Shown here: positions 5,979-61,229 of the stretch, one piece after another
How the letters are laid out: each line of letters begins with the position of its first letter
Position numbering within the stretch: the stretch's first letter is position 1
NCBI RefSeq assembly: GCF_965204145.1
Contig: NZ_OZ241977.1
Coordinates: forward strand, 2,114,840-2,178,839
DNA length: 64,000 nucleotides
Reading direction: 5' to 3'
Source: Candidatus Poriferisocius sp.
GTDB taxonomy: Bacteria; Actinomycetota; Acidimicrobiia; Acidimicrobiales; Bin134
Program-made: the position numbers and the translations under genes
The notes under the pieces: generated by a model
Databases searched by the model: none
What the model was told of the DNA's origin: nothing
What the model saw: only the letters and a program-made list of their open reading frames with translations

Positions 5979-6007
5979 CCCGCCCAGGCTAACGGCCAGA
6001 GCTGGTT

Positions 6008-6025
6008 TTGTACAAGCATGTACAA
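6008..6025. promoter_or_regulatory. Inverted repeat TTGTACA-AGCA-TGTACAA in the vapBC / ilvE divergent intergenic region (candidate operator, overlaps TACAAT)
   Basis: Read directly at 6008-6014 and 6019-6025, 30 bp upstream of the antitoxin start. Confidence 0.35.
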
Positions 6026-6103
6026 TATCTCGCCGACCCCACAAAACCCTCAGTTTCCTGGACTGTCGGGCTATACCATCCTCCTGCCTGAAGGAGAGCC
6101 TGT

Positions 6104-7132
6104 ATGACCGCCAAGCCCGACCCACTCACTGTTCCGTTCGGGACGGTTTTCTGCGACTGGATGACGACGGCGCGGGCCGAGGGCGGGCCCCTTGCCTATG
6201 GCGGGGCTCCGGAGCCATTCGGCGATCTGCGCTTGAGCCCGGCGGCTCACGTGCTGCACTACGGGAGCTCGGTGTTCGAGGGATTGAAGGCGCATCGCCA
6301 GGTTGACGGGTCGGTGGCCATCTTCCGGCTGGACAGCCACGTGACCCGCATGGTCACCAGCGCCGCCTGCCTGCGGCTGCCCGAGATCGATCCCAGCCTG
6401 CTGCGGCAAATGACCATCGATGCAGTTGCGGCCAATGCCCACGAGGTCCCCCACCCGCCGGGATCGCTCTATATCCGCCCGACGCTGGTGGGCACCGGGG
6501 CCGACATCGGAGCCGCCGCCCATCCGGCCCCCTCCGCCCTGTTGTTCGTGGTCAACTCCCCGGTGGGCGACTACTTCAAAGGGGGCATCCGGCCCCTCAC
6601 GCTTCAAGTGGAATCATCGACGCCGCGCACCGTTCCCCAGTTCGGCATGGTGAAGTGCGCCGCCAACTACGCCATGGCCCTGGGCGCCACGCTGGACGCG
6701 ATGGCCGCCAACGAGGCGGTCGACCAAGTGCTGTTCGCCAGCGACGGCGACATCACCGAAACCGGCGCCTCCAACTTCTTCCTGGCCGACGACGAGCGCA
6801 TCGTCACCCGGCACCTCGACGAATCGTTTCTGCACGGCGTGACCCGGGACTCGGTGATCCAGCTCGCCCGCCACCTCGGCTACGACGTGGAAGAACGCGC
6901 CATCGACCCCGAAGAACTCAGCGACTGGGTCGAGCGGGGCGAGGCCTTTTTGTCCGGCACAGCCGCCGGCGTCGCCCCCGTTGGCACCATCCTCTACTCG
7001 GGCAAGACCCTCACCATCGGCGACGGCCAGCCCGGCCCCAGCACCCTGCGCCTGCGCCAAGCGCTCACCGACATCCAAACCGGCGCCGCCCCCGACCCCT
7101 TCAACTGGCGCACCCCGGTGGCAGGCACCTAG
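6104..7132 (+). CDS. ilvE: Branched-chain amino acid aminotransferase (class IV PLP enzyme)
   Basis: HYGSSVFEGLKAHR, FRLDSHVTRMVTSAACLRLP, YIRPTLVGTG, GASNFF, TRDSVIQLA. AAGGAG RBS precedes ATG 6104. Confidence 0.85.
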   Translation: MTAKPDPLTVPFGTVFCDWMTTARAEGGPLAYGGAPEPFGDLRLSPAAHVLHYGSSVFEGLKAHRQVDGSVAIFRLDSHVTRMVTSAACLRLPEIDPSLLRQMTIDAVAANAHEVPHPPGSLYIRPTLVGTGADIGAAAHPAPSALLFVVNSPVGDYFKGGIRPLTLQVESSTPRTVPQFGMVKCAANYAMALGATLDAMAANEAVDQVLFASDGDITETGASNFFLADDERIVTRHLDESFLHGVTRDSVIQLARHLGYDVEERAIDPEELSDWVERGEAFLSGTAAGVAPVGTILYSGKTLTIGDGQPGPSTLRLRQALTDIQTGAAPDPFNWRTPVAGT

Positions 7133-11064: not shown

Positions 11065-12204
11065 TCAGCGAAGCGGTCGGAAGAAGGCCCGCACCTCTTC
11101 CACCAGCTTGTTTGGATTCTCCAGGGCCGGGAAGTGGCCGCCGTCGTCCACCTCGGTCCACCGGGTGATGTTGTAGTAGGGCTCGGCCAGCTCGCGGGGC
11201 GGACGGTTCTTCTCGTTGAACACCGCCACCCCGGTGGGCACGGTAATTCTCGGCGGCTGGTTTAACGCCGAGCCGGCCCCGAAGCTCTCGTAGTACATGC
11301 GCATCGACGGGCCGATGGTGGCCGTGGCCCAGTAGATGGTGAGCAGGGTGCAGAGCTCGTCGAGGGTGTAGCGCCGGGTGAGATCCCGCCCGCCGGGGCC
11401 GTCGATGTCGCTCCACCGCCACCACTTCTCGATGATCCAGGCGGCCAGGCCGGCGGGCGAGTCGGTGAGTCCCACCGCCGCGGTCTGCGGCTTGGTGCGC
11501 TGGAGGTGTACGTAGCCCCACTCCCGGTCGCGGTACTGCTTCACGCCCTCCCACCACTGGCGCTGCTCTTCAGTGAGCGCGGCCTCATCGATGGGCGGGG
11601 CCACCATGTTGAGGTGGATGCCGATCATGCGGTCGGGGTGCATGGCGCCCAGCGCGGCGCTCACCGCGGAGCCCCAGTCGCCGCCTTGGGCGCCGAAGCG
11701 CCCATAGCCGAGGGCGGCCATCAACTCGGCCCATATATCGGCCACCTTGGCCGACGACGCCCCCGGTTGCGACGGCGGGGACGAGAACCCGTAGCCGGGC
11801 AGCGACGGGGCCACCACATGGAATGCATCGGCAGGGTCGCCGCCGTGGGCCCCGGGATCGCTCAGCGGGCCGACCACCTTGTGCATCTCCCAGAAGCAGC
11901 TGGGCCAGCCGTGGGTGATGACCAGCGGCAGCGGATCGGGGCCCCGGCCCTCGGCATGGACGAAGTGGATGTCGATGCCGTCGATGCGCTGGGTGAACTG
12001 GGGCAATTCGTTGAGCGCGGCCTCGTGGGCCCGCCAGTCATAGTCGTGGCGCCAATGGCGGCAGAGGTCGGCAATGAAGGCGGTGTCGGATCCGTAGTCC
12101 CACCCCACCCCGTCCAGAGTCTGGGGCCACCGGGTGGCGTCCAGGCGCCGATGAAGGTCATCGATCACCTCATCGGGCACAGCAATCCGAAACGGCTCAG
12201 CCAC
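11065..12204 (-). CDS. Epoxide hydrolase (alpha/beta hydrolase with EH N-terminal domain)
   Basis: PFRIAVPDEVIDDLHRRLDATRWP, ITHGWPSCFWE (HGWP oxyanion motif), GGDWGSAV nucleophile elbow. Confidence 0.85.
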   Translation of the reverse strand: MAEPFRIAVPDEVIDDLHRRLDATRWPQTLDGVGWDYGSDTAFIADLCRHWRHDYDWRAHEAALNELPQFTQRIDGIDIHFVHAEGRGPDPLPLVITHGWPSCFWEMHKVVGPLSDPGAHGGDPADAFHVVAPSLPGYGFSSPPSQPGASSAKVADIWAELMAALGYGRFGAQGGDWGSAVSAALGAMHPDRMIGIHLNMVAPPIDEAALTEEQRQWWEGVKQYRDREWGYVHLQRTKPQTAAVGLTDSPAGLAAWIIEKWWRWSDIDGPGGRDLTRRYTLDELCTLLTIYWATATIGPSMRMYYESFGAGSALNQPPRITVPTGVAVFNEKNRPPRELAEPYYNITRWTEVDDGGHFPALENPNKLVEEVRAFFRPLR

Positions 12205-12225
12205 GGCGTCAGGGTAGTTGGCCGG

Positions 12226-13815
12226 TCAGCGGTCGCCGATGGCGTAGAAGCCGCCGCCTCGGGAGGCGACGTATACGACTCCCTCCCACACCGCGGGGGT
12301 GGCCTCCACACAGCCGTCCAGCTCAATCCGCCACAGCTCGGGCGGCTCGACCCAGGGCAGGGAGATGTCGAGCCCGTAGAGGACTCCGGCGCAGTCGCCT
12401 TGGATCAACACGTCGTCGATCACCACCGGCGATGACCACACCGGACCGGTCATCCGCTTCCTCCACACGATTTCGCCGGTGCCGCGGTCCAACCCGTACA
12501 AGAAACCGGCGTGGGTGGGCACGTAGACCATCTCTTCGGTGAGCGCCGGGGTGGCCCACACCCCGTCGGTGGCGGTGTTGCGGAGGTCCGTGCCCCATAC
12601 CAGGGGATCCTCAGCAGAGGGGTCCAACTTGAGCATCTGGCCCAGCTCCTGGCTGCGGGCATTGCCCCGCTCGTACTCCACCCCGACGTACAAGAAGCCC
12701 TCGGCGTCGGCCACCACGGTGGCGTCCACGTCGTCGCCCGCCCAGTAGCGGAACACCCGCACGGGGTTGATGCCATGCTCCAGCCCGGCGATGTCCCAAC
12801 CCTGCACCAGCCCCCCGGAGTTGGCGAAGTACAGGGTGTTGCCGATCATGGTCATCCCCCCCTCGATGGACACGTTGCCGTCGCCCACCGCATTGAGCAG
12901 TTCGTCGTCCCAGCCGGGGCTGGTGAACACGATCTCGGGATCGATGGCCACCAGGCCGTCGGGATCGAACGCGCGGTTCAGCTTGATGATGAAGAAATGG
13001 CTGTTCTCCCCGCCTTGGAACAGGTAGTCGTCCAGCACCAGGGCAGCGCCGTCCCAGTCGTCGTTCCACAGCACCGGGGACACCTCGGTGGCGTGCATCG
13101 ACCACAACTCGACCGGTTCTTCCCGGTCGAAGGCGATGATCCTGAGGTAATCGTCCCGCGAGCCGAAGTACACCAGGGGATAGCCGTCGGGATCGACGGT
13201 CACCGACCCCTTGACGAGGTCGCCCACCACGAACTCGGGCAGGATCTGCTCGCCGGTGGCGGCGTCTAGGAAATGGACCCCGGGGGTATAGGTGCCCGCC
13301 ACCACCCAGGTGCGCTCGTCCCACTCGATCACCGCCGGCTGGCCGGTCCAACCAGCCCCGCACCAAAGGGTGACACCGGCCTCCCAGCTGGTGAGCGAGC
13401 ACAGATCCCGCTCGGCGGAGCCGGTGAACCGCCACAGCACCTCCGGCGAACGGGGGGCCGGACCGGTGCCGTAGAAGGTGCGCGTGGGGTTGCCTCGGAA
13501 CGTGAGCAGCCCGGGCATTCCGCTGACCGGCTCAAAGGCGGTGGCCGGGTCCACCCAACCCGGATACGGCGTGGGAGTGGGGACAGGGGTGGGGGTGGCA
13601 GTCGAAGTCGGAGGAGCAGTGGGAGGCGGGGTGATAGGCGGCGGGAGGGTAGGTGTCGGCGCAGAGGTTGGCGGGTCGGCCGGGGGCAGCGGCCTGGAGG
13701 TCGCAATGGTGGTCAACTCGGGATCGTCGACGCCGAAGAACTGCCGATCCACCACCACCGCCACAACTCCGATGGCGGCGGCGATCACCGCAATCACAGC
13801 CCATGTCTTCCACAT
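12226..13815 (-). CDS. Membrane-anchored PQQ-like beta-propeller repeat protein with Pro/Thr-rich linker
   Basis: N-terminal TM WAVIAVIAAAIGVVAVVV, linker PPADPPTSAPTPTLPPPITPPPTAPPTSTATPTPVPTPTP, then repeated GxxYxxDxxTGexxW-type blades (LYGLDRGTGEIVWR, VHFLDAATGEQI). ATG 13815 chosen; GTG 13827 is possible. Confidence 0.7.
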   Translation of the reverse strand: MWKTWAVIAVIAAAIGVVAVVVDRQFFGVDDPELTTIATSRPLPPADPPTSAPTPTLPPPITPPPTAPPTSTATPTPVPTPTPYPGWVDPATAFEPVSGMPGLLTFRGNPTRTFYGTGPAPRSPEVLWRFTGSAERDLCSLTSWEAGVTLWCGAGWTGQPAVIEWDERTWVVAGTYTPGVHFLDAATGEQILPEFVVGDLVKGSVTVDPDGYPLVYFGSRDDYLRIIAFDREEPVELWSMHATEVSPVLWNDDWDGAALVLDDYLFQGGENSHFFIIKLNRAFDPDGLVAIDPEIVFTSPGWDDELLNAVGDGNVSIEGGMTMIGNTLYFANSGGLVQGWDIAGLEHGINPVRVFRYWAGDDVDATVVADAEGFLYVGVEYERGNARSQELGQMLKLDPSAEDPLVWGTDLRNTATDGVWATPALTEEMVYVPTHAGFLYGLDRGTGEIVWRKRMTGPVWSSPVVIDDVLIQGDCAGVLYGLDISLPWVEPPELWRIELDGCVEATPAVWEGVVYVASRGGGFYAIGDR

Positions 13816-13839
13816 CCGCACTTGCACTACCGTAGAGGC

Positions 13840-14367
13840 ATGGAGACCGAATATCTGGACCCCCAGGCTGATCCAGGCGAACCCGTGACCCCTTATGAAC
13901 TGTCTGCGGGGGGCGGATCCCTCACCATCGGGCTGTTGGCCAACGGATTCCCCGATTCAGTCCCGTTCTTGGATGCAGTGGGCGAAAGCCTGCGCCGAGT
14001 GCGTCCCGACGTGGAGGTTCGGGCCTGGAACAAGGGCAACGCCTCGATGGTGGCCGACGACCAGCTCATGGGCGAGATCACCGACGCCTGCGACGCGGTA
14101 GTGGCGGCCTACGGGCATTGAGGAAGCTGCACAAGCGGCACCGTGCGTGACGCCATCAAAGCCGCCCGCCGCGACACCCCGGCCGTGGCCCTGGTGACCA
14201 CCAAGTTCTCCCCCCAAGGTGACTTCGTGTCCCGGTCGGCGGGAATGCCCGACATTCCCCGGGTGATCCTCCCCCATCCCGTGGCCGGAACTGGGGAGAA
14301 GGCCATCAAGATGGTGGCCGACGACATCGCCGACGAGGTGCTCGAGGCGCTGGGCGCCGCCGGATGA
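13840..14367 (+). CDS. UGSC-motif putative selenoprotein (in-frame TGA at 14119-14121 read as Sec)
   Basis: Track ORFs 13273-14121 and 14143-14367 are in the same frame and are separated only by TGA. Read-through gives ...AVVAAYGH-U-GSCTSGTVRDAIKAARRDTPAVALVTTKF..., with coding-like codon usage on both sides. ATG 13840. A hairpin GCGGCAC-CGUGC-GUGACGC lies at 14135-14153. Confidence 0.6.
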
Positions 14368-15461
14368 GCCGTCGGCTCACTGCGGCCTCCGAGGAGGCCG
14401 CTCTCGAGCAGCTCCACGACTCGGGCTGCACTGACGGGCTGCCGGTGGTGATTCCCACCCCCGACCGGGTGGAGCGGATGGTGCTGGCCTCGGGCCTCGA
14501 CAGCGATGTGTCGCTGGGCCAACTCGGTCCCAACCTGGGCGAGGCCACCGTGGAGAAGGCCGCCATCGCCGCGGTGATGGCCGGCTGTCTGCCCGACCAC
14601 TTCCCGGTGGTGGTGGCCGCCGTGCGGGCAGTGAGCGACCCCCGCTTGGACATGACCGAGGTGCAGGCCACCACCCACAATCTGGGACCGCTGCTCATCG
14701 TGAACGGTCCTGCGGTGAGCGCCTGTGGCATCGCGTCGGGGTTCGGCGCGCTGGGCCCGGGCCACCGGGGCAACGCCAGCATCGGCCGGGCCGTGCGATT
14801 GGCCATGATCAACATCGGCGGCGGGCGCCCGGGCACCTCCGACATGGCCCTGCTGGGCCACCCCGGCAAGTTCACCTTCTGTCTGGGCGAAGACGAGGTG
14901 GCCAGCCCCTGGCCGCCACTGCACACTTCGCTGGGCTATGACATCGACCAGAGCACCGTCACCGTGGCCTGCACCGAAGGGCCTCACTCGGTGCTGTGCT
15001 TCCCCGACGACGACCCCGAGGTGTATGCCGACCACCTGCTCAACGTGCTGGCCGCCTCGCTGTCGGGGCTGGGCGCCAACAACACCCACTTCGGCCGGGG
15101 CACCCAGGTGTTGGTGCTCAACCCCGACCACGCTGTGGCCTTGGCCGACGTGGGCCACGACCGGGCCTCCATCGCCGAAGCACTCCACCAGCGGGCCAAG
15201 CGCACCTGGTCGGAGCTGTCCGCCGTGCGCTCTCGGGGTTCGGGCATCAATCGCCACCAGCGCAACCAGGGCGACGACCCCGACCTGGTGGTCCACGCTC
15301 TGAGCAGCCCCGAAGCCCTGCTCATCCTGGTAGCCGGAGGCACCGGCCTGTACTCCACCGTCATGCCCTCCTGGGGCGCCGGCCCCCACGGCAACACCCA
15401 CCTCACCGTAGAGATCGACCTCGACCAAGCCTGTGACGTTCCGTTGCTAGGGTCCGAGTAA
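14364..15461 (+). CDS. Conserved hypothetical protein, translationally coupled to the UGSC gene
   Basis: ATGA overlap at 14364-14367. 365 aa, coding-like composition, motifs GCTDGLPVVIPTP, TTHNLGPLLIVNGP, GNASIGRAVRLAMINIGGG. I do not recognise the family. Confidence 0.6.
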   Translation: MSRRLTAASEEAALEQLHDSGCTDGLPVVIPTPDRVERMVLASGLDSDVSLGQLGPNLGEATVEKAAIAAVMAGCLPDHFPVVVAAVRAVSDPRLDMTEVQATTHNLGPLLIVNGPAVSACGIASGFGALGPGHRGNASIGRAVRLAMINIGGGRPGTSDMALLGHPGKFTFCLGEDEVASPWPPLHTSLGYDIDQSTVTVACTEGPHSVLCFPDDDPEVYADHLLNVLAASLSGLGANNTHFGRGTQVLVLNPDHAVALADVGHDRASIAEALHQRAKRTWSELSAVRSRGSGINRHQRNQGDDPDLVVHALSSPEALLILVAGGTGLYSTVMPSWGAGPHGNTHLTVEIDLDQACDVPLLGSE

Positions 15462-16531
15462 TGGGCATCTTCAGCCAGCGGAGAGAGACCTGGAGGCAGA
15501 CAAGAGCCTTAGCCTCTGTGCGAGCGGGGCAGCACCCAACCGTTCGGTCCGTGGGAGACACCTGGAGGCGGACAAGAATCCTGGCATCAGCCTCATATGA
15601 GGTGTTGAAGCGCGACAGGTTCCTCATGGCTTTTCCAGCCCTGAGCTTGACCGCAGCAGTAGTCATCAACGTTGTCATCTGGGTGGTGGTCTGGGTCACC
15701 ACAACAGGCCTCAGTTCCGGCACGGTTGACGACCCCGACCAGTGGGTTGCTGAACCAATCGTATGGATCGGGCTCGTGGCGTCCGTACTGCTATGCACCT
15801 TTGCCTCGATCTATTTCACCGCCGCGCTGACCTATGGGGCTTGGGAGCGGTTCCAAGGCAGAACTCCGACCTTCGAAAGCTGCATATCGGCAGCCAATGC
15901 CCGTCTCCACATCATCGTGCCCTGGGCCATCCTCGCCGGCATCGTGGGAGTGATCATCGAACTCTTGTACCGGCTCCCCAGAATCTTCCGCTACATGGAA
16001 CAGGCTGGTCGCAACATCCCCGTGGTCGGCCATTTCGCTGCCATCGGAACAATGATCGTGGCCGTTCTGCTTGAGTCCATTTGGTACTTCGTCACCTACC
16101 TCGTCGTGCCAATTCTGGTAGTGGAAGAGACCGGCCCGATTGCTTCGTGCAAACGCTCCTTCCAACTCTTCCGCAAGACCTGGGGAAAGAGCCTCATCGC
16201 CCAAGTGGCCTTCGACCTCATCGGCCTTCTCATCGCTTTGCCCGGACTGGCGCTGGCCGCTCTCATAGTGCTCGCCGGATTGGGGAATCCAGCGGCGCTT
16301 GTTATCGGAATCGGAATCGGCGTGGCCTGGCTGCTTGTGGTGATTGTGGCCATGTCGGCAATTGTTGGCATATTCAAGATGGCGCTGTACCTCTACGTGA
16401 CCACGGGCGAAGTGCCTCGTGAGTACCAAGGTCCCGACCTCGAGAAAGCGTTCGCAGGTTACAGCTTCCTCAAAGTCGAACGAAGAACTCGCAAGCCACG
16501 AGGGAAGGCCCAAGACCCAGAGGCTTCCTGA
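15461..16531 (+). CDS. Polytopic membrane protein (DUF6159-like, assignment from memory), paralogue 1
   Basis: TAATG overlap with the upstream stop. Multiple TM helices; LVVPILVVEETGPIASCKRSFQLFRKTWGKSLIAQVAFDLIGLL aligns with the next gene. Confidence 0.6.
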   Translation: MGIFSQRRETWRQTRALASVRAGQHPTVRSVGDTWRRTRILASASYEVLKRDRFLMAFPALSLTAAVVINVVIWVVVWVTTTGLSSGTVDDPDQWVAEPIVWIGLVASVLLCTFASIYFTAALTYGAWERFQGRTPTFESCISAANARLHIIVPWAILAGIVGVIIELLYRLPRIFRYMEQAGRNIPVVGHFAAIGTMIVAVLLESIWYFVTYLVVPILVVEETGPIASCKRSFQLFRKTWGKSLIAQVAFDLIGLLIALPGLALAALIVLAGLGNPAALVIGIGIGVAWLLVVIVAMSAIVGIFKMALYLYVTTGEVPREYQGPDLEKAFAGYSFLKVERRTRKPRGKAQDPEAS

Positions 16532-16576
16532 TCGGAGTTACCTCAAACACCAGGTTTCGCTGGTACCGTTTTGCCC

Positions 16577-17880: not shown

Positions 17881-20334
17881 TTGACCACGTTCTTCGAATC
17901 CGTGGGAAAGCTGGCAGTAGTGTCGCGGATCGTGTCTTCGAATGAACTGCCGCTGAGCGGCCTCCGGGTCATCGACATGGCCGACGTCAAGGGCGAGTTG
18001 GCCGGTCGGCTGCTGGCCGACTTCGGCGCCGACGTGATCCGGGTGGAGCCGCCCGGCGGGGCCGAATCCCGGCGCATGCCCCCGTTCGCTCCCGATGGCG
18101 ACACCAGCCTGTATTTCGCCTTCCGCAACTTCAACAAGCGGGGCATCACCGTGGACGTGACCACCGCCGATGGCCAGGCCCAGTTGCGGGAGCTGCTGGC
18201 CAGCGCCGATGTGTGGATCGAATCCACCAAACCGGGGACGCTGGCCCCTCACGGGCTCGACCCCCGGGATGTGTCCGCAGAGTTCGAGCACCTGTTGGTG
18301 CTGTCAATCACCGACTTCGGTCAAGAGGGGCCGTACGCCCAGTTCGAGGCCACCGACGAGGTGATCCAGGCCATGAGCGGACACCTGGCCGCCTCGGGCA
18401 TCCCGGAGAAGCCGCCGCTGCTCATACCTGGGGCAATCGCCTATGACACCGCCGGCGTGGTGGGTGCGCTGGCTGTGGCCATCGGGCTGGTGGCCAAGCA
18501 GCGCACTGGGCGGGGCCAGCACCTGGACTTCTCGGTGCTGGAGGCGGCCATCCACCTCAACACCTGGCAGCTGGCCAACATGCAGCCCACCCTCGACGCG
18601 GGAATGGACCCTCCCATCGTCCGGTCGGGAACCACCGTGGTGTATCCCCTGTTCGAAACGTCCGATGGCTTCATCACCATGGTGATCCTCAGCCCCCGCC
18701 AGTGGTTTGCACTGTGGGAGTGGATGGGCCGCCCCGAGGCGTTCGCCGACGAGATGTGGAGCCAGACCATTACCCGGATCATGAACGGCGACGTGTTGAA
18801 CCCGGTGATCGCTGAGCACTTCGCCCCGATGATGATGGAGGAAGCCGCGGCCGAGGCCCAGCGCCGGGGCGTGGTGGTCACTCCGATGCTCAAGCCGTCC
18901 GACATCCTGGTGAACGAGCACTACGTCTCCCGGTCGACGTTCGTGCCGATGGAAGTGGCCCCCGGCATCGAAGCAGCAACCGCCTCGGGGTTCATGGAGA
19001 TCAACCGACAGCGCCAGGGGTTCCGCTTCGGTGCGCCATCGGCGGGTGAGCACAACGCCGAAGTGACCGCCGAGGCCGTAGTCGCCGAACCCCGCGGGCC
19101 GGTCCCGGCCCCCGGCGAGACGGCCCAACCGCTGGCTGGGCTGCGGGTGCTGGACTTCGGCCACGGCGGCGTGGGCGTGGAGGGCGGCCGGATGCTGGCC
19201 GAATACGGGGCCGACGTCATCAAGATCGAAACCCGTACCTATCCCGATTTCATGCGGCTGGTCATCGGAACCGAGATGACGGCGTCGTTCGCCTCGTCGA
19301 GCCGCACCAAGCGCAGCTTCGGGGTCAACTCCAAGATCCCCGAGGGCCTGGCGGTGCTGAAGGAGTTGGTGAAGACGGCCGACATCGTGATCGAGAACAA
19401 CTCCACCGGCACCATGGACGCCATGGGGGTGGGCTACGAGACGCTCAAAGAGCTCAATCCCGGCGTGTGCATGGCCAGCAGCCAGCTCATGGGCTCCACC
19501 GGGGCCTATGCCGACTGGATTGGCTACGGGCCCACCATCCAGACAGTGGGGGGCATCAAGTACCTGTGGAACTTCACCGACGGCGACCCGCCGCCGGGGT
19601 CCAACGCCATACACCCCGACCACCTGGCCGGACGGCTGTGCGCTCTGGGCGCGCTGGTCGGCCTGTTGAGCCGAGACCGCCGGGACGGCGATGGGGCGCA
19701 AGCCGAGATCAGCCAGGCCGAGGCATTGGTCAACACACTGGGCGATCTGTTCATGGCCGAGTCGCTCAGCCCCGGCTCGGTGCAGCCGGTGGGCAACGAC
19801 TCCGACCAAGGCGCCCCCTGGGGAGTGTTCCAGTGCGACGGCGACCAGCAGTGGAGCGTGGTGTGTGTGCGCCACGACGCCGACTGGGCCGCGCTAAAGC
19901 AGGCCATGGGCAACCCGGCCTGGGCCGATCACCCGGCCTACGGAACCGCTGAAGGCCGTTTGGCCGCCCGGGAAGCAGTCAACGCCGGTGTAGCCGAGTG
20001 GACGGCCAACCTCTCACCGCTGGAGGTCCAGGAGGCGTGTCAGGCTGTCGGCGTCCCCGGCTCAGCCATGCTCACCGCCCTCGACCACATGACCGATCCC
20101 CAGCTCACCCAGAGAGGCTTCCCGTTGGAGGTCTTCCAACCCGGCGCCGGCGACCTGGTTCTGGAAGGCCCTTGCTTCTACGGCAGCGAGATGCCCACCC
20201 CCCCAGTCCACGCCGCCCCCCTACTCGGCGAGCACACCCGCCAAATCTGCACCGAAGAACTCAACATGGACCCCGCCGAAGTCGAACGCCTTGTCGAGAT
20301 GGGCGCCCTAGAAGTCCCCCTACCCGAGGACTGA
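17881..20334 (+). CDS. Family III CoA-transferase (CaiB/BaiF type), tandem two-domain form
   Basis: Two signatures: LSGLRVIDMADVKGELAGRLLADFGADVIRVEPPGG and LAGLRVLDFGHGGVGVEGGRMLAEYGADVIKIETRTYPD. The track start is TTG 17881; in-frame GTGs at 17902, 17920 and 17932 are equally plausible. Confidence 0.85.
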   Translation: MTTFFESVGKLAVVSRIVSSNELPLSGLRVIDMADVKGELAGRLLADFGADVIRVEPPGGAESRRMPPFAPDGDTSLYFAFRNFNKRGITVDVTTADGQAQLRELLASADVWIESTKPGTLAPHGLDPRDVSAEFEHLLVLSITDFGQEGPYAQFEATDEVIQAMSGHLAASGIPEKPPLLIPGAIAYDTAGVVGALAVAIGLVAKQRTGRGQHLDFSVLEAAIHLNTWQLANMQPTLDAGMDPPIVRSGTTVVYPLFETSDGFITMVILSPRQWFALWEWMGRPEAFADEMWSQTITRIMNGDVLNPVIAEHFAPMMMEEAAAEAQRRGVVVTPMLKPSDILVNEHYVSRSTFVPMEVAPGIEAATASGFMEINRQRQGFRFGAPSAGEHNAEVTAEAVVAEPRGPVPAPGETAQPLAGLRVLDFGHGGVGVEGGRMLAEYGADVIKIETRTYPDFMRLVIGTEMTASFASSSRTKRSFGVNSKIPEGLAVLKELVKTADIVIENNSTGTMDAMGVGYETLKELNPGVCMASSQLMGSTGAYADWIGYGPTIQTVGGIKYLWNFTDGDPPPGSNAIHPDHLAGRLCALGALVGLLSRDRRDGDGAQAEISQAEALVNTLGDLFMAESLSPGSVQPVGNDSDQGAPWGVFQCDGDQQWSVVCVRHDADWAALKQAMGNPAWADHPAYGTAEGRLAAREAVNAGVAEWTANLSPLEVQEACQAVGVPGSAMLTALDHMTDPQLTQRGFPLEVFQPGAGDLVLEGPCFYGSEMPTPPVHAAPLLGEHTRQICTEELNMDPAEVERLVEMGALEVPLPED

Positions 20335-20353
20335 TTGGCGCCCGCCAAATCAG
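20331..20353. terminator. Hairpin between convergent genes (9 bp stem with one bulge, GCCC loop), no clear U-tract
   Basis: ctgattggc-gccc-gccaaatcag overlaps the CoA-transferase stop codon and lies at the high-GC/low-GC boundary. Confidence 0.35.
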
Positions 20354-20367
20354 GTTAGTGCTGCAGT

Positions 20368-21447
20368 CTATTCAAAGTGTATTCTTAATTCCGAAGACGA
20401 ATATCCGAAACAGTCCAAGAATAACTGTGCTCTCTTGACACAGTGCTCAGCACTAAGGTGGACATCGATGTAGTACCCCGTGGAGCCGATCTCATAGTAT
20501 GAGTTAGGCTTGGGAACCTTCAACATTTGTGGATTTCGAGCCACATATGGGTGCATTCTTCCCTTGAGGTCTAACATTTTTTGAAATTCGTGGGAATGCC
20601 TCTCATAGAGTACTTCTGCCACTATGCGAGTGATATCCTTCCATATTCGCACTGGATACCTATGTCCCCACAGCTCTATAGCCGTCGGAAGTTGTTTGAT
20701 TGGCGACTTTTTCTTAGTATCTCTTGATGAAGAGCTAGTAGTGGCAGGGGCATTCATAGTTCGGTCGCTTGGAGTTGGCAATGAAGGTTGAGGAGAACGT
20801 TGCAATGCTTCCACAACCTGCCTTCTGGCGGGCCTTAAGTTGGTATTCTCATATACCCTCTTGCTCAAAAGCTCCACCAGTTCGTCGTCAGGCGCGCTCA
20901 GCATATGAGCCCAGATGCCCGGTATTTCCTTATTGAGTCTTGCAGTTTCTAGGCTTGCTTTGAGTACCAACTTCGCTCGTTGTAGTGCTTGGCCGCCGAC
21001 CAGGTTCTCCTTGCTCAAAAAAGCGCTCAAGTCATCTGCCAATTGCTCAAGAGGATCCTCATTCAGCTTTAACACTGCAAATCTTCGTTTTGCTGGGTCA
21101 CCGGACTCTCTTGGGAGATAAAGCCACCACTCCAACCCAGTCGTTAGTACGCAGATGTCCACCCCCTCATGAAATGCATAGCCGAGCACTTGAGAAACGT
21201 GACTGTCCAACTTCGAATTTGGAGCTTTCGCCTCAATCATGGCGACAATCCCAGTCGTCCCCCTAAGTGCAATATCGACCCGACCGCTGCCCCCGCCCCC
21301 GACGGAATACTCATATAGGACTTCAGGGCCATATGGGTCCCATCCCAAATCCTGGAGGATAGGTGCCAAGACCTTTAACTTGGCCGACTCCTCGTTTTGA
21401 GGTTCTGGCGACGAGCGAATCTTCTCCAGTCTCTCTTGTAGGGTCAT
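20368..21447 (-). CDS. HsdR-N-terminal-like PD-(D/E)xK nuclease-fold protein with uncharacterised C-terminal domain
   Basis: ESAKLKVLAPILQDLGWDPYG...GRVDIALRGTTGIVAMIEAKAPNSKLDSHVSQVLGYA...VLTTGLEWWLY matches the type I restriction HsdR N-terminal module (D...E-x-K). Ser/Thr/Pro linker, then about 110 aa I do not recognise. ATG 21447 follows GAGGA. Confidence 0.65.
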   Translation of the reverse strand: MTLQERLEKIRSSPEPQNEESAKLKVLAPILQDLGWDPYGPEVLYEYSVGGGGSGRVDIALRGTTGIVAMIEAKAPNSKLDSHVSQVLGYAFHEGVDICVLTTGLEWWLYLPRESGDPAKRRFAVLKLNEDPLEQLADDLSAFLSKENLVGGQALQRAKLVLKASLETARLNKEIPGIWAHMLSAPDDELVELLSKRVYENTNLRPARRQVVEALQRSPQPSLPTPSDRTMNAPATTSSSSRDTKKKSPIKQLPTAIELWGHRYPVRIWKDITRIVAEVLYERHSHEFQKMLDLKGRMHPYVARNPQMLKVPKPNSYYEIGSTGYYIDVHLSAEHCVKRAQLFLDCFGYSSSELRIHFE

Positions 21448-21515
21448 CGGTCCTCGCTTTGAAACAGAATGTAGACGGCCCAACAGGGTAGCGCGCTACC
21501 GGTGCCTGGCCATTC

Positions 21516-22262
21516 TCAGCTGGCCAGAGCGGTCAGCGGGTATTGGTCCCAGGTCCGACCGTCCAAATGGCGACCACCGGCCTTGGGCGAGCGACCGCCC
21601 CACTGCTTGAAGAAGAAGGGGACTCCGGCGTCGACGCAGCGGTCGCGGAGATCGGTTACCCATTCGGTCGACATGGGCCTAGCGCCAACACCGCTCTCGC
21701 CGCCAGCGATCAGCCAGTCGATGCCGGTGAGGTCAAAGGCTCCCAGCGCCCCAAGAAGCGGTTCGGCGCTGACGAAACGGACATGAGCAGCTACCTCCTG
21801 CAAATGCCTCACTCGGAACAGGTAGCGAGCAGATTCCACACTGACTCCTACCCATGCGTTGGATGGCCATTCCAGAGCATTGCTGAGTTGCACAAGCCGG
21901 TGTGAACGCTTGGTCAGCACTTGGTAGATGTGGTCCGGAGTGTCTCTCATGACCTCAAGCACATCCCTGATGAACTCCACTGGTACACCCTCATGGAAGA
22001 GATCACTCATGGAGTTGACAAAGATCATGCGGGGCTTTGTCCAAGTCGTAGGCAAGACCAGCGTCTCCGGGTGGCAGGTCAGTCCAAAGCCAGGGCCGCT
22101 GGTCCTCGGATCGCCATCGGCCTGGTACTTTGCCTGGCCCATCAATTTGAGCCGACCGGCCATCTTCAGGGCGTAGCAGTTGTCGCAACCCGGCGAGACC
22201 CGGTCGCAGCCGGTGGTGGGATTCCAAGTGGCATCGGTCCACTCGATGGCCGACTCAGCCAT
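21516..22262 (-). CDS. DUF5131 / phage Gp37-Gp68 family protein with three-Cys motif
   Basis: MAESAIEWTDATWNPTTGCDRVSPGCDNCYA (C-x6-C-x2-C), IFVNSMSDLFHE, IDWLIAGGESG, FFFKQWGG. Matches my memory of PF07505. Confidence 0.75.
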   Translation of the reverse strand: MAESAIEWTDATWNPTTGCDRVSPGCDNCYALKMAGRLKLMGQAKYQADGDPRTSGPGFGLTCHPETLVLPTTWTKPRMIFVNSMSDLFHEGVPVEFIRDVLEVMRDTPDHIYQVLTKRSHRLVQLSNALEWPSNAWVGVSVESARYLFRVRHLQEVAAHVRFVSAEPLLGALGAFDLTGIDWLIAGGESGVGARPMSTEWVTDLRDRCVDAGVPFFFKQWGGRSPKAGGRHLDGRTWDQYPLTALAS

Positions 22263-22289
22263 GGGAAACACGCGGGTCTTTGCTTCGGC

Positions 22290-23219
22290 TCATGCGACAT
22301 CCTCCCACTCCGGCAACTCGAACGGGAGTTCGTCTCGCCAGCCTGTGTGGAGATCTTCATACTGTTGTCGAGTCTCCTCGGCATCGAACAGAGTGCCCGC
22401 TTCGGGCTGAACACGATCCTTCTCCTGGGCCCAACTCATGATCGACTTGCCTGCGGGGCTGTCGGTCACGAAGATCATCGCATACAGCTCATTCCGCTTG
22501 TTGGGTACGATTGGCCGGACAAGCAGATGCTTGTAGCCCAAGCCTGCTAGGCGGTCCATGTAGAGATAAAGGTATGCCTTCTTGGCATGCCCAGGCTCGA
22601 GTTCACCTGACAGTCGGGCTTCCCAGATTCTCTCCCAAGGCCCCCAGGCCCCGTACAGTTCTGCGACTTTCTGTGGATACTCGCGCTTCACCGCTTCTTT
22701 GCGGTTCGAACCCAACATACGCACAATGCCCGATGTGCAAAAGAGGATCCACATTTCCACCTTTGTGCCGTTCGATCTTTCTGCGTATGCACGCTTGTGG
22801 TCGGATAGCGCTCGAATGGTCGACCAGTGCAACTCCATCCCATCAGGGTCGAGAAATGCAAATGTTGGAGCCTTCGCTGGAAGCTCTTGTAGTACGCGAG
22901 CCATCTCCTTGTTGCAGTCCCCTGCGATGACCTGCACATCTTGATTGCTGCGGCCAGAGGCCAACTTCTCTAGCCCTAGAACTCGATTCTGATTCATCTC
23001 AAAGAAACGGAGATGAGTGAACGGCGGCATCGCCTCGAGTGCCAATTCCGGTGACCCAGGGAATTCTCGATCCGTCCCTTTAATGAGATTTTTTGGATCA
23101 CCGGCAAAGGCATCGATGTACACCCGATTGCGCGCTCTTTGGGTGGCCTGAGTAAATACCGGTAGATAGTCACCGAGGATTGAGATCTTCTCGTACGAAT
23201 GCCCTTTCCACTCTCGCAT
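22290..23219 (-). CDS. tcmP: Three-Cys-motif partner protein TcmP-like (methyltransferase-like fold)
   Basis: HSYEKISILGDYLPVFTQA, VYIDAFAGDPKN (motif-I-like), FAFLDPDGMELHW (DPxG motif-IV-like). Sits immediately upstream of the DUF5131 gene, which is the canonical pairing. GGAGG RBS before ATG 23219. Confidence 0.65.
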   Translation of the reverse strand: MREWKGHSYEKISILGDYLPVFTQATQRARNRVYIDAFAGDPKNLIKGTDREFPGSPELALEAMPPFTHLRFFEMNQNRVLGLEKLASGRSNQDVQVIAGDCNKEMARVLQELPAKAPTFAFLDPDGMELHWSTIRALSDHKRAYAERSNGTKVEMWILFCTSGIVRMLGSNRKEAVKREYPQKVAELYGAWGPWERIWEARLSGELEPGHAKKAYLYLYMDRLAGLGYKHLLVRPIVPNKRNELYAMIFVTDSPAGKSIMSWAQEKDRVQPEAGTLFDAEETRQQYEDLHTGWRDELPFELPEWEDVA

Positions 23220-23286
23220 GGAACCTCCTGTGCTGAGGACAGCACAAGGTACCCAGGGAGAGTGACAACATCGGCCAGCAGCCCGG

Positions 23287-24072
23287 TCAGCCGATGACTA
23301 GGCCTCCGTTGGGGGTGATGGTTTCGCCGGTTACGAAATCGCTCTCGTCGGAGGCCAGGTAGAGGGCCGCGTAGGCGATGTCTTCGGGCTGGCCGATACG
23401 GCCGGCGGGGGTGATCATCTTGAGGCCTTCGATCATGTCGGCGTCTACCCCCGCCACCATCGGGGTGTCGATCACGCCGGGGCACACTGCGTTGGCCCGG
23501 ATGCCGTGGGGGGCGCAGAACCGGGCCATGGCCCGCATGAAACCCAGCAGACCGGCCTTGGCGGTGGCGTAGTGAATCGGCCCCCACCCGGCTAGTCCGG
23601 CGATGGACGACATGCAGACAACCGAGCCCTTGAGGTCGGTGTCGATGATCCGGGACAACATGGCCCGGGTGCAGTAGAAGGCGCCGTTGAGATGGATGTC
23701 GAGCATTCGCTGCCAGCCGTCGTCGCTCATGTCCACGATCTGGCGGTCGCCGCCGGTGTTGCCCTCCCCGGAGCCGTCACCGGGGGTGCTGTCGACGCCG
23801 GCGTTGTTCACCAGCACGGTGACCGGGCCGAAGCGGTCGTCGATGTCGGCGAACATGGCCTCGATGGCCTTGCTGTCGGACACGTCGCAGGCTGCGCTCA
23901 TGGCCTCGCCACCGTTGGCGATCACCTGATCGACGGTGGCCGCGGCAGCCGCCTCGTTCAAGTCCTGCACCACTACCTTGGCGCCCTCGCTGGCGAACAA
24001 CACGCTGATGGCCGTGCCTATCCCGCCCCCACCACCGGTTACCAGAGCAACTTTGCCGTCCAGTCTTCCCAT
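23287..24072 (-). CDS. SDR family oxidoreductase (FabG-like)
   Basis: GKVALVTGGGGGIGTA, NNAG, YATAKAG catalytic Y-x3-K, PGVIDTPM. ATG 24072 preceded by GGGAGG. Confidence 0.85.
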   Translation of the reverse strand: MGRLDGKVALVTGGGGGIGTAISVLFASEGAKVVVQDLNEAAAAATVDQVIANGGEAMSAACDVSDSKAIEAMFADIDDRFGPVTVLVNNAGVDSTPGDGSGEGNTGGDRQIVDMSDDGWQRMLDIHLNGAFYCTRAMLSRIIDTDLKGSVVCMSSIAGLAGWGPIHYATAKAGLLGFMRAMARFCAPHGIRANAVCPGVIDTPMVAGVDADMIEGLKMITPAGRIGQPEDIAYAALYLASDESDFVTGETITPNGGLVIG

Positions 24073-37329: not shown

Positions 37330-37545
37330 TCAGTCATCAAAATCCTCCCGGTCCAGCACCATGTCCCAGCGATCGCCGCAGTCCGAACAGCGGTAGGCCA
37401 CAGAGTCGCCGGGCTCGGGCGGATCATCCTCCGGCCAGTACGTGATCCGGTGGCACCACCCCCCACAGTCCACACACACGATCCGATCGGCAATCACCGT
37501 CTTCAGTGTGCCACCCCGGCCTGGCGACCCCATCGACTCCATCAA
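37330..37545 (-). CDS. Small zinc-ribbon protein (two CxxC pairs), coupled to the HNH gene
   Basis: CVDCGG...CSDCGD; the ATG overlaps the HNH stop (ATGA at 37542-37545). Confidence 0.45.
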   Translation of the reverse strand: MMESMGSPGRGGTLKTVIADRIVCVDCGGWCHRITYWPEDDPPEPGDSVAYRCSDCGDRWDMVLDREDFDD

Positions 37546-38459
37546 GAAGCTCTGAGAAACACCTCGAAGCGCTCGGCCAGCAAGTCTCGGTCTGGCTTGG
37601 CGGCCCGCCGCCGTGGCACGTGGAGAGGCGAGTCGTGCAAGCCTTGAATTGCGTGCCTCAAAGTCGGCCCATCCGAGTCATCCAATACATCAGGGCGAAT
37701 TTTGACTTGGTAGTCAGAGTTGATGCCGAGAAGGTGGCTGTCATATGCAGCATGGTGGATCTTGCACATTGAGATGCCGTTCGTGACTACTGGCTTACCT
37801 CCTTCAGAATCAGCCCTGATATGAGCAGCATCCAATAGCTCCGGGTATCGGAGACTGCATATTCCGCATTGCGACCCGTACGCGGTCAGTACCCGAGCCC
37901 GGAACAACGGCTGGTGCAGCCGCCTCTTCGCAACGTCCTCGGCATATTCCCGCAGCAAGGGGATGTCAGCCGCATCAGCTCCCGACCAGCGCTCTTGCTG
38001 CGCCTCATCTAATGCCACAACAAATTGGTGAAGCCCCGGCTCTTCGTCGACCAAAAAGACTGGGAAAATTGGCTTGTAGAGACCCACGGCAATTCCTACG
38101 AACCAAATCAGCGGGACTCCTTCCTCGAGAGCTACCCGCAAGGCTTGGTTGGTCCAGAGCAGAGGATCGGTTTTCTCCCACTTGTAACGCATGTATCCGT
38201 CGGCTCCGGAGTGATCGTCATAGGGGAGACTGGCCGAGTCTGCTCGATACGTCGTAGTGATAGACAAAGCAGCATCGAGGACTTTGGGCTTGTAGATGCC
38301 CCTTTGCCGATTCTTGAACAGGATCCGGCTTCCCTCGAAAGAAAACCCATCCTCAATATCACTCCACGTGACAACGCCACCGGAGGCATCGGACAGCAAG
38401 CGAAGCTTCGCGAAAGCTGCTGACCGTACACGTTCGTCCCACGCGGCATCAAAGGCCAC
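37542..38459 (-). CDS. SRA/YDG-like domain fused to HNH endonuclease (candidate type IV modification-dependent restriction enzyme)
   Basis: C-terminal HNH_2 pattern GSQCGICSLRYPELLDAAHIRADSEGG...NGISMCKIHHAAYD. The N-terminal RGIYKPKVLDAALSITTTYRADSASLPYDDHSGADGYMRYKW resembles the SRA GIxxP...ALSI...YxDD...G...Y layout. Lower GC than the flanks. GTG start. Confidence 0.7.
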   Translation of the reverse strand: MAFDAAWDERVRSAAFAKLRLLSDASGGVVTWSDIEDGFSFEGSRILFKNRQRGIYKPKVLDAALSITTTYRADSASLPYDDHSGADGYMRYKWEKTDPLLWTNQALRVALEEGVPLIWFVGIAVGLYKPIFPVFLVDEEPGLHQFVVALDEAQQERWSGADAADIPLLREYAEDVAKRRLHQPLFRARVLTAYGSQCGICSLRYPELLDAAHIRADSEGGKPVVTNGISMCKIHHAAYDSHLLGINSDYQVKIRPDVLDDSDGPTLRHAIQGLHDSPLHVPRRRAAKPDRDLLAERFEVFLRAS

Positions 38460-38500
38460 GTTGCCACCCTAGGACAAGAAGCGATCTTACGCTGGCGACG

Positions 38501-38626
38501 TCATGTTTCAGAGGCGCTCCGGAGGCTCTCCCATTCGTCGAGGAGGCTGGAGTCGGTGGTGCGGAGGTGATTGACGAATGCTTCGACCGGCGCGGTATGC
38601 ATCAGAGCGGCCATGGCAATGCCGGG
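38501..38626 (-). pseudogene. Displaced 3' fragment homologous to the DUF3516 helicase C-terminus (att-associated remnant)
   Basis: The minus-strand frame reads (stop)PGIAMAALMHTAPVEAFVNHLRTTDSSLLDEWESLRSASET(stop). The intact gene end at 47249 reads IPAAAVNDPLASLTAELHTLLRSTDSSLLDEWESLREG. Confidence 0.6.
38520..38567. repeat. Direct repeat copy A (47/48 identical to 47259-47306)
   Basis: cggaggctctcccattcgtcgaggaggctggagtcggtgg T gcggagg. 40 bp are identical, then 1 mismatch, then 7 bp identical. Confidence 0.95.
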
Positions 38627-38671
38627 CTACGAGGGGCCACCACAAATGTGAGCCAGCAGGAACAAATCACT

Positions 38672-43696: not shown

Positions 43697-43725
43697 AATT
43701 TGCTTGAAGTGTAGGTTGGCACGCT

Positions 43726-54721: not shown

Positions 54722-54849
54722 ACGTTCTGCCCGCAGAGATTGCTAGCTCGACTGGGTAGGTCGGCTGTGGGGTGCGCATTGTCATTGTTTGAAGTGGCCA
54801 TGTTGGCCTGTAGCATGGCTCGCAGCCGTTGCGTACTGCGCGACACCAG

Positions 54850-58233: not shown

Positions 58234-58566
58234 GACCCGCCGTAGACCACTTCCTGACCCCTAGAAACAGCATGTCCAAGCGCTCAACGAGGATGCCATA
58301 ACAGATCGTAGGTCCGTAGATCGAGCCACGGTGGCGGAGTCGAGCACTGCCAATTCAACCTCGATGCCCTTGGACACTACATCTCGGTCCTTGAAACCGA
58401 ACAGGTGAATGAGGCTGTCGGCTATGAATTACAGGCACTCCTCCACCGATAGCAGACAATGGTCGCCTTCACAGTCAGGCAGCATCTCAACTGGGAACAG
58501 GGTTCCGCAGTCAATCGACTGGAAATGGCAACTGATGGCTGTCAGTCGCTCAGGCATACTGGCTTC

Positions 58567-60839: not shown

Positions 60840-60992
60840 ATACAAGCATCCGAATGACGGAACGCTGAACGGAGTCGATGGCGATATCGACCGCTGGGTG
60901 GACGACAAAGGAGTGCTGCACGTGTTCTTGGCACCGGGAGGATCGTTCCGGCTGAGCGATGAGCCAGACCGGGTTTGTACACCTAATACGAA

Positions 60993-61229
60993 CTAGCCCT
61001 CGTCGCACTCGGGAGCGCAATAGGCGCACCCGTTGATGCTCCAATCCGGGTATATCGCTCTAGCCAGTAGCACAGCCTCCCGACATGAGGGGCGCTCGAA
61101 TAGGTGGATCTGGTTTATGTCGTCGGGAAGGCACCCCTTCTCCTTGCCAACTGACAGATTGTGGAGTTCTCGCTGCCCCTTGTGCTTGCCTTCGGTCTGG
61201 GCGTTCTCGTTCAAGACGAAATGTGGCAT
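60993..61229 (-). CDS. Small Cys-rich hypothetical protein
   Basis: 78 aa ending INGCAYCAPECDEG; lies upstream and co-oriented with the methylase-like gene. Family not recognised. Confidence 0.3.
   Translation of the reverse strand: MPHFVLNENAQTEGKHKGQRELHNLSVGKEKGCLPDDINQIHLFERPSCREAVLLARAIYPDWSINGCAYCAPECDEG

Follow-up and report, generated by a model that had tools for sequence, protein, structure and literature searches.

PADLOC lists 145 PDC systems. These defence candidates were proposed because they lie embedded within BREX, DISARM or type I restriction-modification (R-M) loci ('guilt-by-embedding'); they entered the database without phage testing and were not among the candidates that were cloned. 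Two of them, PDC-M41 and PDC-M30, have the same B family (Payne et al. 2024 bioRxiv 10.1101/2024.01.29.577857). In the classification of RadicalSAM.org, DUF5131 proteins form the radical-S-adenosylmethionine (SAM) subgroup Megacluster-5-2, and spore photoproduct lyase is subgroup 5-3 (PMC9477430). Our literature searches on DUF5131, TcmP, PF07505, COG4422 and PDC-M41 found no functional study. Here we analyse a tcmP-DUF5131 pair and the putative nuclease gene beside it, termed P3, in a 64-kb stretch of contig NZ_OZ241977.1 (positions 2,114,840 to 2,178,839; hereafter the window).

At window positions 20,329-23,286, a ~3-kb low-GC insert carries the three genes, all on the minus strand. We favour the reading that this insert is a small defence-type islet of two functionally autonomous, separable cassettes and not one three-gene R-M system, which we regard as reasonably probable though not secure. 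The genome, from a sponge-associated member of the Acidimicrobiia close to Ca. Poriferisocius, would have a recombination hotspot at the site of the islet; cassette 1 would be tcmP plus the DUF5131 gene (PDC-M41), and cassette 2 would be P3, a solitary nuclease. Judging from sequence and context, both are probably anti-phage. The main features are as follows.

20329..23286, no strand: low-GC insert, variable hotspot at the 3' ends of the convergent CoA-transferase (+) and short-chain dehydrogenase/reductase (SDR) (-) core genes (blastn edges, GC)
22290-23219, minus strand: tcmP, three-Cys-motif partner protein, 309 aa, RlmJ-like class-I SAM-methyltransferase fold, motif IV DPDG (TIGR04474, PDC-M41A, model)
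21516-22271, minus strand: DUF5131 (Gp37/Gp68) three-Cys protein, predicted radical-SAM-superfamily enzyme, 251 aa (PF07505, PDC-M41B)
20368-21483, minus strand: P3 open reading frame (ORF); likely start ATG 21447 (M13), giving 359 aa (homologue starts)

Linkage of the three genes and cargo states of the slot

The initial annotation had taken the three genes for one modification-plus-restriction-style system, a claim that depends on whether the third gene accompanies the pair elsewhere. P3 proved not to be syntenic with the pair in general: DUF5131 was found within 10 kb of P3 in 9 of 78 genome loci and in none of the other 69, while P3 occurred in 0 of the 79 metagenomic TcmP loci. Furthermore, the slot between the SDR and CoA-transferase genes held at least five cargo states among relatives (numbered L loci).

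Pair plus P3 allele 1: window, L001/L007, L004
Pair plus P3 allele 2 (52%): L012
VapBC-like module in place of all but the last 26 tcmP codons, DUF5131 and P3 intact: L008, L009
Pair intact, P3 a frameshifted stub of its first and last ~20 codons: L184
No pair; P3 with two HipBA modules, AbiE and another HsdR_N-like gene: L002

The DUF5131 genes of L008 and L009 are 86-96% identical to that of the window, and P3 has stayed intact there after the loss of tcmP, which argues against an R-M-type dependency of P3 on the pair. Likewise, P3 alleles with identities down to 52-54% stand beside DUF5131 genes that are 86-96% identical; hence the two do not co-evolve. Taken together, the absence of DUF5131 near P3 in 69 of the genome loci, the metagenomic count, the slot states (L184, L008/L009 and L002) and the G+C content at third codon positions (GC3), which is 0.52 for P3 vs 0.61-0.71 for the pair, are our grounds for treating the cassettes as independent.

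Two of these slot states can be described more closely. As judged by eye from the translations, the module in L008 (8371-9015) and L009 (424-1068) encodes a 76-aa ribbon-helix-helix-antitoxin-like protein and a 135-aa PIN/VapC-toxin-like protein. The P3 remnant of L184 (2770-2895), beside the intact pair, consists of the first ~20 codons (VSLLETLERVRSSSDPQ) and the last ~20 codons (EFLGCFGYPASDLEVLFD*) in different frames.

If the trio were one R-M-like system, the pair would install a protective radical-SAM DNA modification on self DNA, and P3 would cut unmodified DNA. Such a unit would suit three co-oriented, tightly spaced genes whose arrangement is kept in L001/L007, L004 and L012. Three recurrences point the same way and weigh against the autonomy of the cassettes: the trio is found again in a second chromosomal slot (ABM/FecCD to the arginyl-tRNA synthetase gene) in L181; P3 adjoins PDC-M30-type pairs in L060/L061 and L065; and the position after DUF5131 is always DNA-methylation-related, being taken by P3, by a C5 DNA methylase (L182/L183) or, in other lineages that carry the pair inside type I R-M operons, by hsdM directly downstream. 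Given L181 and the PDC-M30 neighbours, some functional coupling of the pair and P3 is possible.

On the other side, tcmP is swapped for the VapBC-like module in L008/L009 with P3 intact; most P3 genes are solitary or in tandem, with neither a methylase nor the pair seen alongside; the pair goes without P3 in all 79 metagenome loci and in phages; and the SeqA-like reader of P3, described below, is typical of enzymes that target marked, not unmarked, DNA. The sparse linkage, the independent gain and loss in one slot and the type of reader thus make a three-gene R-M system improbable. The co-localisation of DUF5131 and P3 in L060/L061 and L065 was rejected as proof of a link, since each genome has several copies of either cassette and defence genes cluster in islands; a few such cases among ~70 loci are, by our rough estimate, about the level of chance. 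For a functional link of any kind between the pair and P3, our estimate ranges from improbable to doubtful.

A coupling of another kind would be 'write or edit, then read' immunity, in which the radical-SAM enzyme, guided by TcmP as an RlmJ-like m6A-pocket protein with altered catalysis, would turn a base of invading DNA into a new mark, with N6-methyladenine as a candidate substrate, and the hypervariable SeqA-like reader of P3 would recognise this mark for its nuclease to cut. We rate it as distinctly improbable. In a weaker version, the pair alone would be a new radical-SAM nucleic-acid-modifying defence, and P3 would found a SeqA-reader class of Type IV enzymes.

The tcmP-DUF5131 pair

For the pair, the family calls of the initial annotation held up well, and the motifs that it quoted were all found in the translations: TGCDRVSPGCDNCYA and GGESG in DUF5131, IDAFAGD and FLDPDG in TcmP, and D70...E84-A-K86 in P3. 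In profile searches, TcmP matched TIGR04474 at 3e-46 (158.5 bits vs the NCBIfam cutoff of 53), with 257 of 263 profile positions covered, and the PADLOC PDC-M41A model at 7e-23. The suggested methyltransferase-like nature of TcmP was borne out by its AlphaFold model (predicted local distance difference test, pLDDT, 90.7; predicted template-modelling score, pTM, 0.91), whose top PDB matches in Foldseek were RlmJ (1e-8, template-modelling score (TM) ~0.5), LPL1258/DUF519 and Trm1, with RlmCD also among them. PDB searches by sequence gave no match to TcmP, either with the single sequence or with a profile.

Among 39 TcmP sequences, D36, F38, A39, G40, E74, G100, D101, N103 and the stretch F122-L-D-P-D-G127 are invariant or at least 90% kept; the SAM-binding motifs I-III (DxFAG, E74, GDxN) are thus invariant or nearly so. 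The usual form of the catalytic motif IV is DPPY. In TcmP this motif is the family-invariant D124-P-D-G127, which does not fit the pattern (D/N/S)PP(Y/F/W), the aromatic residue being gone, and for this reason TcmP is not filed as a conventional N6-methyladenine (m6A) methyltransferase. Membership among ordinary m6A methyltransferases was rejected on the same motif. TcmP models as a SAM-binding, nucleic-acid-directed methyltransferase fold that is without the defining feature of the N6-adenine methyltransferases.

The DUF5131 protein covers profile positions 2-243 of the 243 of PF07505 (5.8e-96; 321 bits vs a gathering cutoff of 28.9) and matches the PADLOC PDC-M41B model at 1e-104; a weak match to TIGR04471, 'radical SAM mobile pair protein A', was also obtained (4.8e-20). 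Its homologues begin at MAESAIEW, which makes ATG 22262 an alternative start. In 60 sequences with 50-96% identity, C22-x6-C29-x2-C32, C212, NSMSDLFH, TKR, SxEPLLG, GGESG (G190-G194) and FFFKQWGG are at least 95% kept, and the three cysteines and GGESG are invariant. The spacing of the cysteines is non-canonical (CX6CX2C, not CX3CX2C). Searches of the PDB by sequence, again with the single sequence and with a profile, returned no relative. The earlier description of this protein as radical-SAM-like is in line with the invariant cysteines and GGESG as well as with its Megacluster-5-2 placement; DUF5131 would accordingly be counted as a member of the radical-SAM superfamily with predicted Fe-S and SAM chemistry. 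The protein would hold a [4Fe-4S] cluster on CX6CX2C and cleave SAM, TcmP would contribute its RlmJ-like SAM-binding nucleic-acid methyltransferase fold lacking the aromatic residue of DPPY, and the pair may act on a nucleic-acid base, in DNA more likely than in RNA.

Adjacent to each other and matching both the A and the B model, TcmP and DUF5131 make up the PADLOC candidate PDC-M41. The pair is therefore an already catalogued, uncharacterised defence candidate, and the statement that it is a known association with no established biochemistry was right, the listing having been proposed by embedding. Where a metagenomic TcmP locus has room on both sides, DUF5131 is adjacent in 36 of 37 cases. 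In the clade closest to the window pair, the TcmP proteins are 58-63% identical and the gene order is the same; this clade is nested as hsdR-hsdS-[tcmP-DUF5131]-hsdM in L082, L083, L091-L093, L095 and L100, with DUF5131 only 19 nt upstream of hsdM in L083, and L096 reads hsdR-hsdS-tcmP before its contig ends. A second subtype follows hsdM (hsdR-hsdS-hsdM-DUF5131-tcmP in L142 and L143). Elsewhere, the pair stands after N6-methylase and McrBC-like genes on the Nocardioides plasmid pNOCA01 and, in two Gordonia phages (Bosnia and BaxterFox), directly adjoins the immunity repressor. The type I R-M operons, McrBC, the prophage immunity repressors and the PDC-M41 matches agree with the defence-like context that had been proposed. 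As a module sufficient in itself, the pair would be carried along in restriction loci and in the immunity regions of prophages.

Several further observations concern the neighbourhood of the pair. In BaxterFox (L090, KU963263.1), a full-length DUF5131 gene at 5981-6715, 66% identical to the window protein, was apparently missed in the deposited annotation; it lies on the strand opposite to the annotated short ORFs gp40/gp41 and is convergent with the TcmP homologue gp42. The L060 island (11188-15477) contains a DUF488 protein (PDC-M45B) and a dual-OB protein, DuOB (PDC-M45A), followed by DUF5131 and a 423-aa TcmP with a C-terminal GMT-like winged helix-turn-helix domain (PDC-M30A), and is convergent with a P3 homologue. 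On the S. meliloti megaplasmid pSymA (L179, NC_003037.1 ~1256744-1257208), SMa2243, a homologue of TcmP, is next to SMa2245, the gene of the Hna defence helicase; SMa2243 and the validated Hna gene are jointly up-regulated in a nolR+ strain (PMC12445080).

The distribution of DUF5131 raises the alternative that the pair is not an immune effector but a nucleic-acid modification or repair module of mobile elements (hypermodification, or processing of lesions or methyl groups) that evades restriction and hitch-hikes in R-M loci. DUF5131 is present in 180 phage records, and long solo forms (Che9c gp68, RcapNL, Typha, phiBt and a Microcystis phage) occupy early, DNA-metabolism or replication modules near DNA methyltransferase, ASCH and HNH genes in the five loci checked, with no TcmP within 3 kb. 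Since tblastn with the window TcmP undercounts phage TcmP proteins (gp45 of Bosnia was found by a hidden Markov model only), we make no general claim of partner-less phage DUF5131 beyond these five loci. The neighbouring radical-SAM subgroup 5-3 and the C5 DNA methylase that follows the pair in L182/L183 would also fit this alternative; spore photoproduct lyase is a DNA-repair enzyme. Against it, the short form that is partnered with TcmP adjoins prophage immunity repressors, the usual site of defence genes expressed in lysogens; the pair owes its PADLOC listing to being embedded in type I R-M operons; and it is found in islands with toxin-antitoxin (TA) and abortive-infection (Abi) genes. We consider a modification or repair role of this kind unlikely. 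In sponge symbionts, DUF5131 (COG4422) is enriched.

The putative P3 nuclease and its SeqA-like domain

As cassette 2 of the two-cassette reading, P3 would be an HsdR-N-type PD-(D/E)xK domain joined to a SeqA-like domain through a helical stretch and a flexible linker. Its start is probably ATG 21447, because 33 of 33 aligned homologues begin at M13. In ORF numbering, the parts of the protein, all on the minus strand, are the following.

21064..21447, minus strand: N-terminal PD-(D/E)xK nuclease domain, HsdR-N type, residues 13-140 (invariant residues, Foldseek)
20698..21063, minus strand: helical middle (141-230) and Pro/Ser-rich disordered linker (231-262) (model)
20371..20697, minus strand: C-terminal SeqA-like DNA-binding (reader) domain, residues 263-371 (Foldseek, profile)

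The model of P3 (pLDDT 86) has an alpha/beta nuclease domain, a long helical region (helices at 145-228), a disordered linker (pLDDT <50 at 235-261) and a compact C-terminal domain. The linker is poorly kept, with 6-28% identity to the window sequence.

That the third protein is of HsdR-N type, as the initial annotation had it, is backed by D70, E84, A85, K86, Q98 and Y102, which are invariant in 34 sequences; by Foldseek matches of the N-terminal domain to 3h1t, a fragment of HsdR, and to the DrdV and BpuSI nuclease domains; by a match to the phage 'endonuclease' phrog_4225 (2e-12); by tblastn hits to archaeal-plasmid genes whose annotation reads HsdR N-terminal domain protein; and by a PF13588 (HSDR_N_2) match at 9e-11 in a relative. 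The window protein itself stays below the PF04313 (HSDR_N) cutoff (1e-4; 22.7 vs 25.1 bits). PADLOC models gave no match to P3, and a PDB search with the single sequence gave a chance match only. A type I HsdR was rejected as an identity for P3, which lacks a motor domain and is unaccompanied by HsdM or HsdS.

The C-terminal domain, which had been called unknown, is a remote SeqA-like DNA-binding domain according to the model and the profile, not a family member by the Pfam threshold. Foldseek matched it to the SeqA C-domains 1lrr, 3fmt, 1iu3 and 3sk7 with a probability of 1.0 and a target-normalised TM of 0.44-0.61 (0.57-0.61 for isolated C-domain chains), the root-mean-square deviation being ~3 Å in four of the five matches. 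Consistently, a profile built from 35 C-domain copies had only SeqA among its top five PDB hits (E 0.013-0.056) over the full domain length, and 16 of these 35 copies matched PF03925, the Pfam SeqA family, below threshold. The domain is duplicated in longer P3 homologues.

The two halves of P3 evolve at different rates. Mean pairwise identity across the family is 71% for the nuclease domain and 38% for the SeqA-like domain, and the DNA homology between P3 alleles breaks off mid-gene, so the reader half is either exchanged or diverging faster. The least-kept stretch, YYIDVHLSAEH, aligns with the T-N-T-N base-contact loop of SeqA, and a basic patch aligns to the SeqA G-R-T-R segment. In a scan of 1.84 billion representative proteins, this C-terminal domain occurred in 361 clusters at 1-6 copies per protein, elsewhere combined with GmrSD_N plus HNH, DUF7226 plus DpnI_C, RmuC, a STAND-type ATPase and HSDR_N_2. 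Both GmrSD and DpnI belong to the modification-dependent enzymes. The presence of a SeqA-like reader points to a nuclease that would read DNA marks with no need of a cognate modifier, and the reader may set which marked or foreign DNA is cut. From architecture and context, P3 would be a modification-dependent (Type IV or IIM-like) restriction endonuclease: a nuclease is fused to a reader homologue with no cognate methylase, the recognition of modified DNA by the reader being suggested by homology only.

Some points tell against this reading of P3. As Guarné and co-workers reportedly described in 2002, N150 and N152 of SeqA read the methyl-adenine pair; the aligned positions of P3 are H342 and S344 and are variable, so recognition of methylated DNA by P3 is an extrapolation. 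The window C-domain scores 18.8 bits against PF03925, where the cutoff is 25.5, and the PF04313 match of the nuclease domain is likewise below its cutoff. More broadly, the analysis shows family assignments, modelled folds, conserved residues, modular gain and loss and genomic contexts, and from these we infer the biochemistry and the anti-phage role of all three proteins.

P3 homologues were found in metagenome-assembled genomes (MAGs) of Acidimicrobiia, Dehalococcoidia, Gemmatimonadota and Acidobacteriota, many of which carry sponge-symbiont names such as Ca. Poriferisocius and Spongiisociaceae. Most of the genes stand alone or in tandem arrays with two to five paralogues each, and VapC, HipA, AbiE and transposase genes are their neighbours; across the five loci for which genes were called, no called gene beside P3 belonged to a DNA-methylase Pfam family. 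Arrays of three to five diverged paralogues between metabolic genes were seen in L170 (5428-11006), L016, L028, L038, L056 and L072. Their members are ~31-53% identical to the window P3, and some have two SeqA-like domains; L170 is the only array with gene calls, and no methylase is listed there.

These contexts also bear on the idea that P3 is not a restriction enzyme but a selfish homing-type nuclease cassette or a MutH/SeqA-like strand-discrimination factor. A single-gene cassette of atypical GC between housekeeping genes would look much like the former, and a nuclease joined to a reader of hemimethylated DNA is conceptually MutH plus SeqA. Neither role is easily squared with several diverged paralogues per genome in tandem arrays, with TA, Abi and transposase neighbours, with a presence that varies among close relatives and includes a pseudogene remnant, or with the fusion of the same reader domain to GmrSD/HNH and DpnI_C; intron or intein context was not seen. 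We judge both roles very improbable and keep to P3 as a putative modification-dependent nuclease.

Surroundings of the insert and comparison with known systems

The description of a low-GC block of three co-oriented genes between a CoA-transferase and an SDR gene proved accurate, coordinates included, by ORFs, GC, GC3 and blastn edges. In blastn against relatives, the core-genome DNA homology stops at ~20327/20328 and resumes at 23279-23289, and the two edges coincide with the stop codons at which the convergent CoA-transferase and SDR genes end (the Pfam calls for both flanking genes were taken from their L001 orthologues). GC is 0.49 for P3, 0.61 for DUF5131 and 0.55 for tcmP vs 0.66-0.69 for the flanking genes; along the insert it runs at 0.46-0.61 vs 0.63-0.71 outside. 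GC3 is 0.71 for DUF5131 and 0.61 for tcmP, and 0.80-0.87 for neighbouring genes. The insert is compositionally foreign. The gap between tcmP and DUF5131 is 18 bp, and the DUF5131-P3 spacer is 68 bp; the length and sequence of this spacer differ among relatives, and it moves together with the P3 allele. Three small elements were noted.

21487..21500, minus strand: perfect 14-bp palindrome, GGTAGCGCGCTACC, within the DUF5131-P3 spacer (read from sequence)
23229..23246, minus strand: inverted repeat TGTGCT-N6-AGCACA, directly 5' of the tcmP ribosome-binding site AGGAGG (kept in relatives)
20335..20348, no strand: inverted repeat TTGGCG-CC-CGCCAA, between the CoA-transferase and P3 stop codons (read from sequence)

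As a hairpin or an operator, the palindrome might separate the two cassettes, and the TTGGCG-CC-CGCCAA repeat could form a bidirectional terminator hairpin. The tcmP upstream region, including the TGTGCT-N6-AGCACA repeat, is common to L001, L004 and L012, and the repeat may have a function there. A scan of the locus for sigma-70 consensus promoters found no site, and terminator-like sites at the locus were not in excess over the shuffled expectation.

Other parts of the window are also variable in composition or content. About 4 kb from the insert, 15450-16556 (GC 0.575-0.59) looks like another variable spot: it is unaligned in the otherwise collinear L001, L004 and L008, aligns over only ~150 bp in L002 and otherwise aligns only in L012. 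A second lower-GC block at 37542-45501 (0.575-0.64) encodes an HNH_2 endonuclease (305 aa), a UvrD-like helicase (591 aa) and a 1709-aa protein with an RNase_T exonuclease, a DinG-like helicase and a RecQ-like DEAD helicase; an orthologue of this giant helicase flanks the tcmP-DUF5131-C5-methylase cassette in L182/L183. The stretch 54829-62488 is probably another mobile or defence island. It contains a 1134-aa protein with weak matches to the nSTAND3 and NPHP3_N nucleoside triphosphatase domains, then ORFs 58459-59283 and 59280-60908, which have no Pfam match and the lowest GC of the window (0.46-0.55), and it ends with an IS1595-family transposase at 61337-62488.

DUF5131 is a large radical-SAM subgroup without a known reaction that occurs in at least 180 deposited phage genomes, and finding the reaction that it performs with its methyltransferase-like partner would add new chemistry to phage defence or counter-defence. 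The P3 family is spread over several phyla of sponge symbionts; if P3 does read foreign methylation, it would help to explain how DNA exchange is policed in dense, methylase-rich symbiont communities and could yield new methylation-dependent nucleases as tools. The slot itself is a clean natural experiment, in which at least five cargo states show the modularity of the cassettes.

Among described systems, PDC-M41 and PDC-M30 stand closest to the pair: the window proteins match the PDC-M41 A and B models and adjoin each other, and their nearest relatives outside sponges lie within type I R-M operons, the kind of embedding through which such candidates were found. Unlike these, the window pair is not inside any R-M system, and no HsdR, HsdS or HsdM homologue was found in the 64-kb window. 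In filling the hsdS-hsdM gap of a co-oriented operon, the closest pair clade resembles PrrC and other genes nested in type I R-M operons; however, the protein families are unrelated, and there is no evidence that the R-M complex keeps the pair latent or that the pair guards the complex. RlmJ (the 23S rRNA m6A2030 methyltransferase, DUF519) and Trm1 are the best structural matches to TcmP, which keeps motifs I-III, but TcmP differs from them in its DPDG in place of DPPY, in the lack of a PDB match at the sequence level even by profile, and in being obligately paired with a radical-SAM-type protein.

P3 has a predicted N-terminal PD-(D/E)xK domain of the HsdR type with the D...ExK motif, but lacks the superfamily 2 (SF2) helicase/translocase domain and the HsdM and HsdS partners. 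With SeqA, the factor of replication-origin sequestration in E. coli, it has in common a predicted C-terminal DNA-binding fold and a flexible linker to an N-terminal module; in contrast to SeqA, the N-terminus is a putative nuclease in place of the oligomerisation domain, and P3 is multi-copy and horizontally mobile, with variable residues at the N150/N152 positions. SeqA-RAMA fusions receive a passing mention in PMC4738411. In design P3 resembles the Type IV/IIM enzymes (GmrSD, McrBC, DpnI, SRA-HNH), having a nuclease tethered to a homologue of a modified-DNA reader and a specificity domain that diversifies, and its reader occurs elsewhere in fusion with GmrSD_N plus HNH and together with DpnI_C. 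It departs from them in that the reader is SeqA-like and in having no PADLOC model match, and no Type IV enzyme bearing this kind of reader came up in the literature searched. With its fast-evolving SeqA-like reader, P3 would be a so far undescribed variation on Type IV logic, and not a new category of system.

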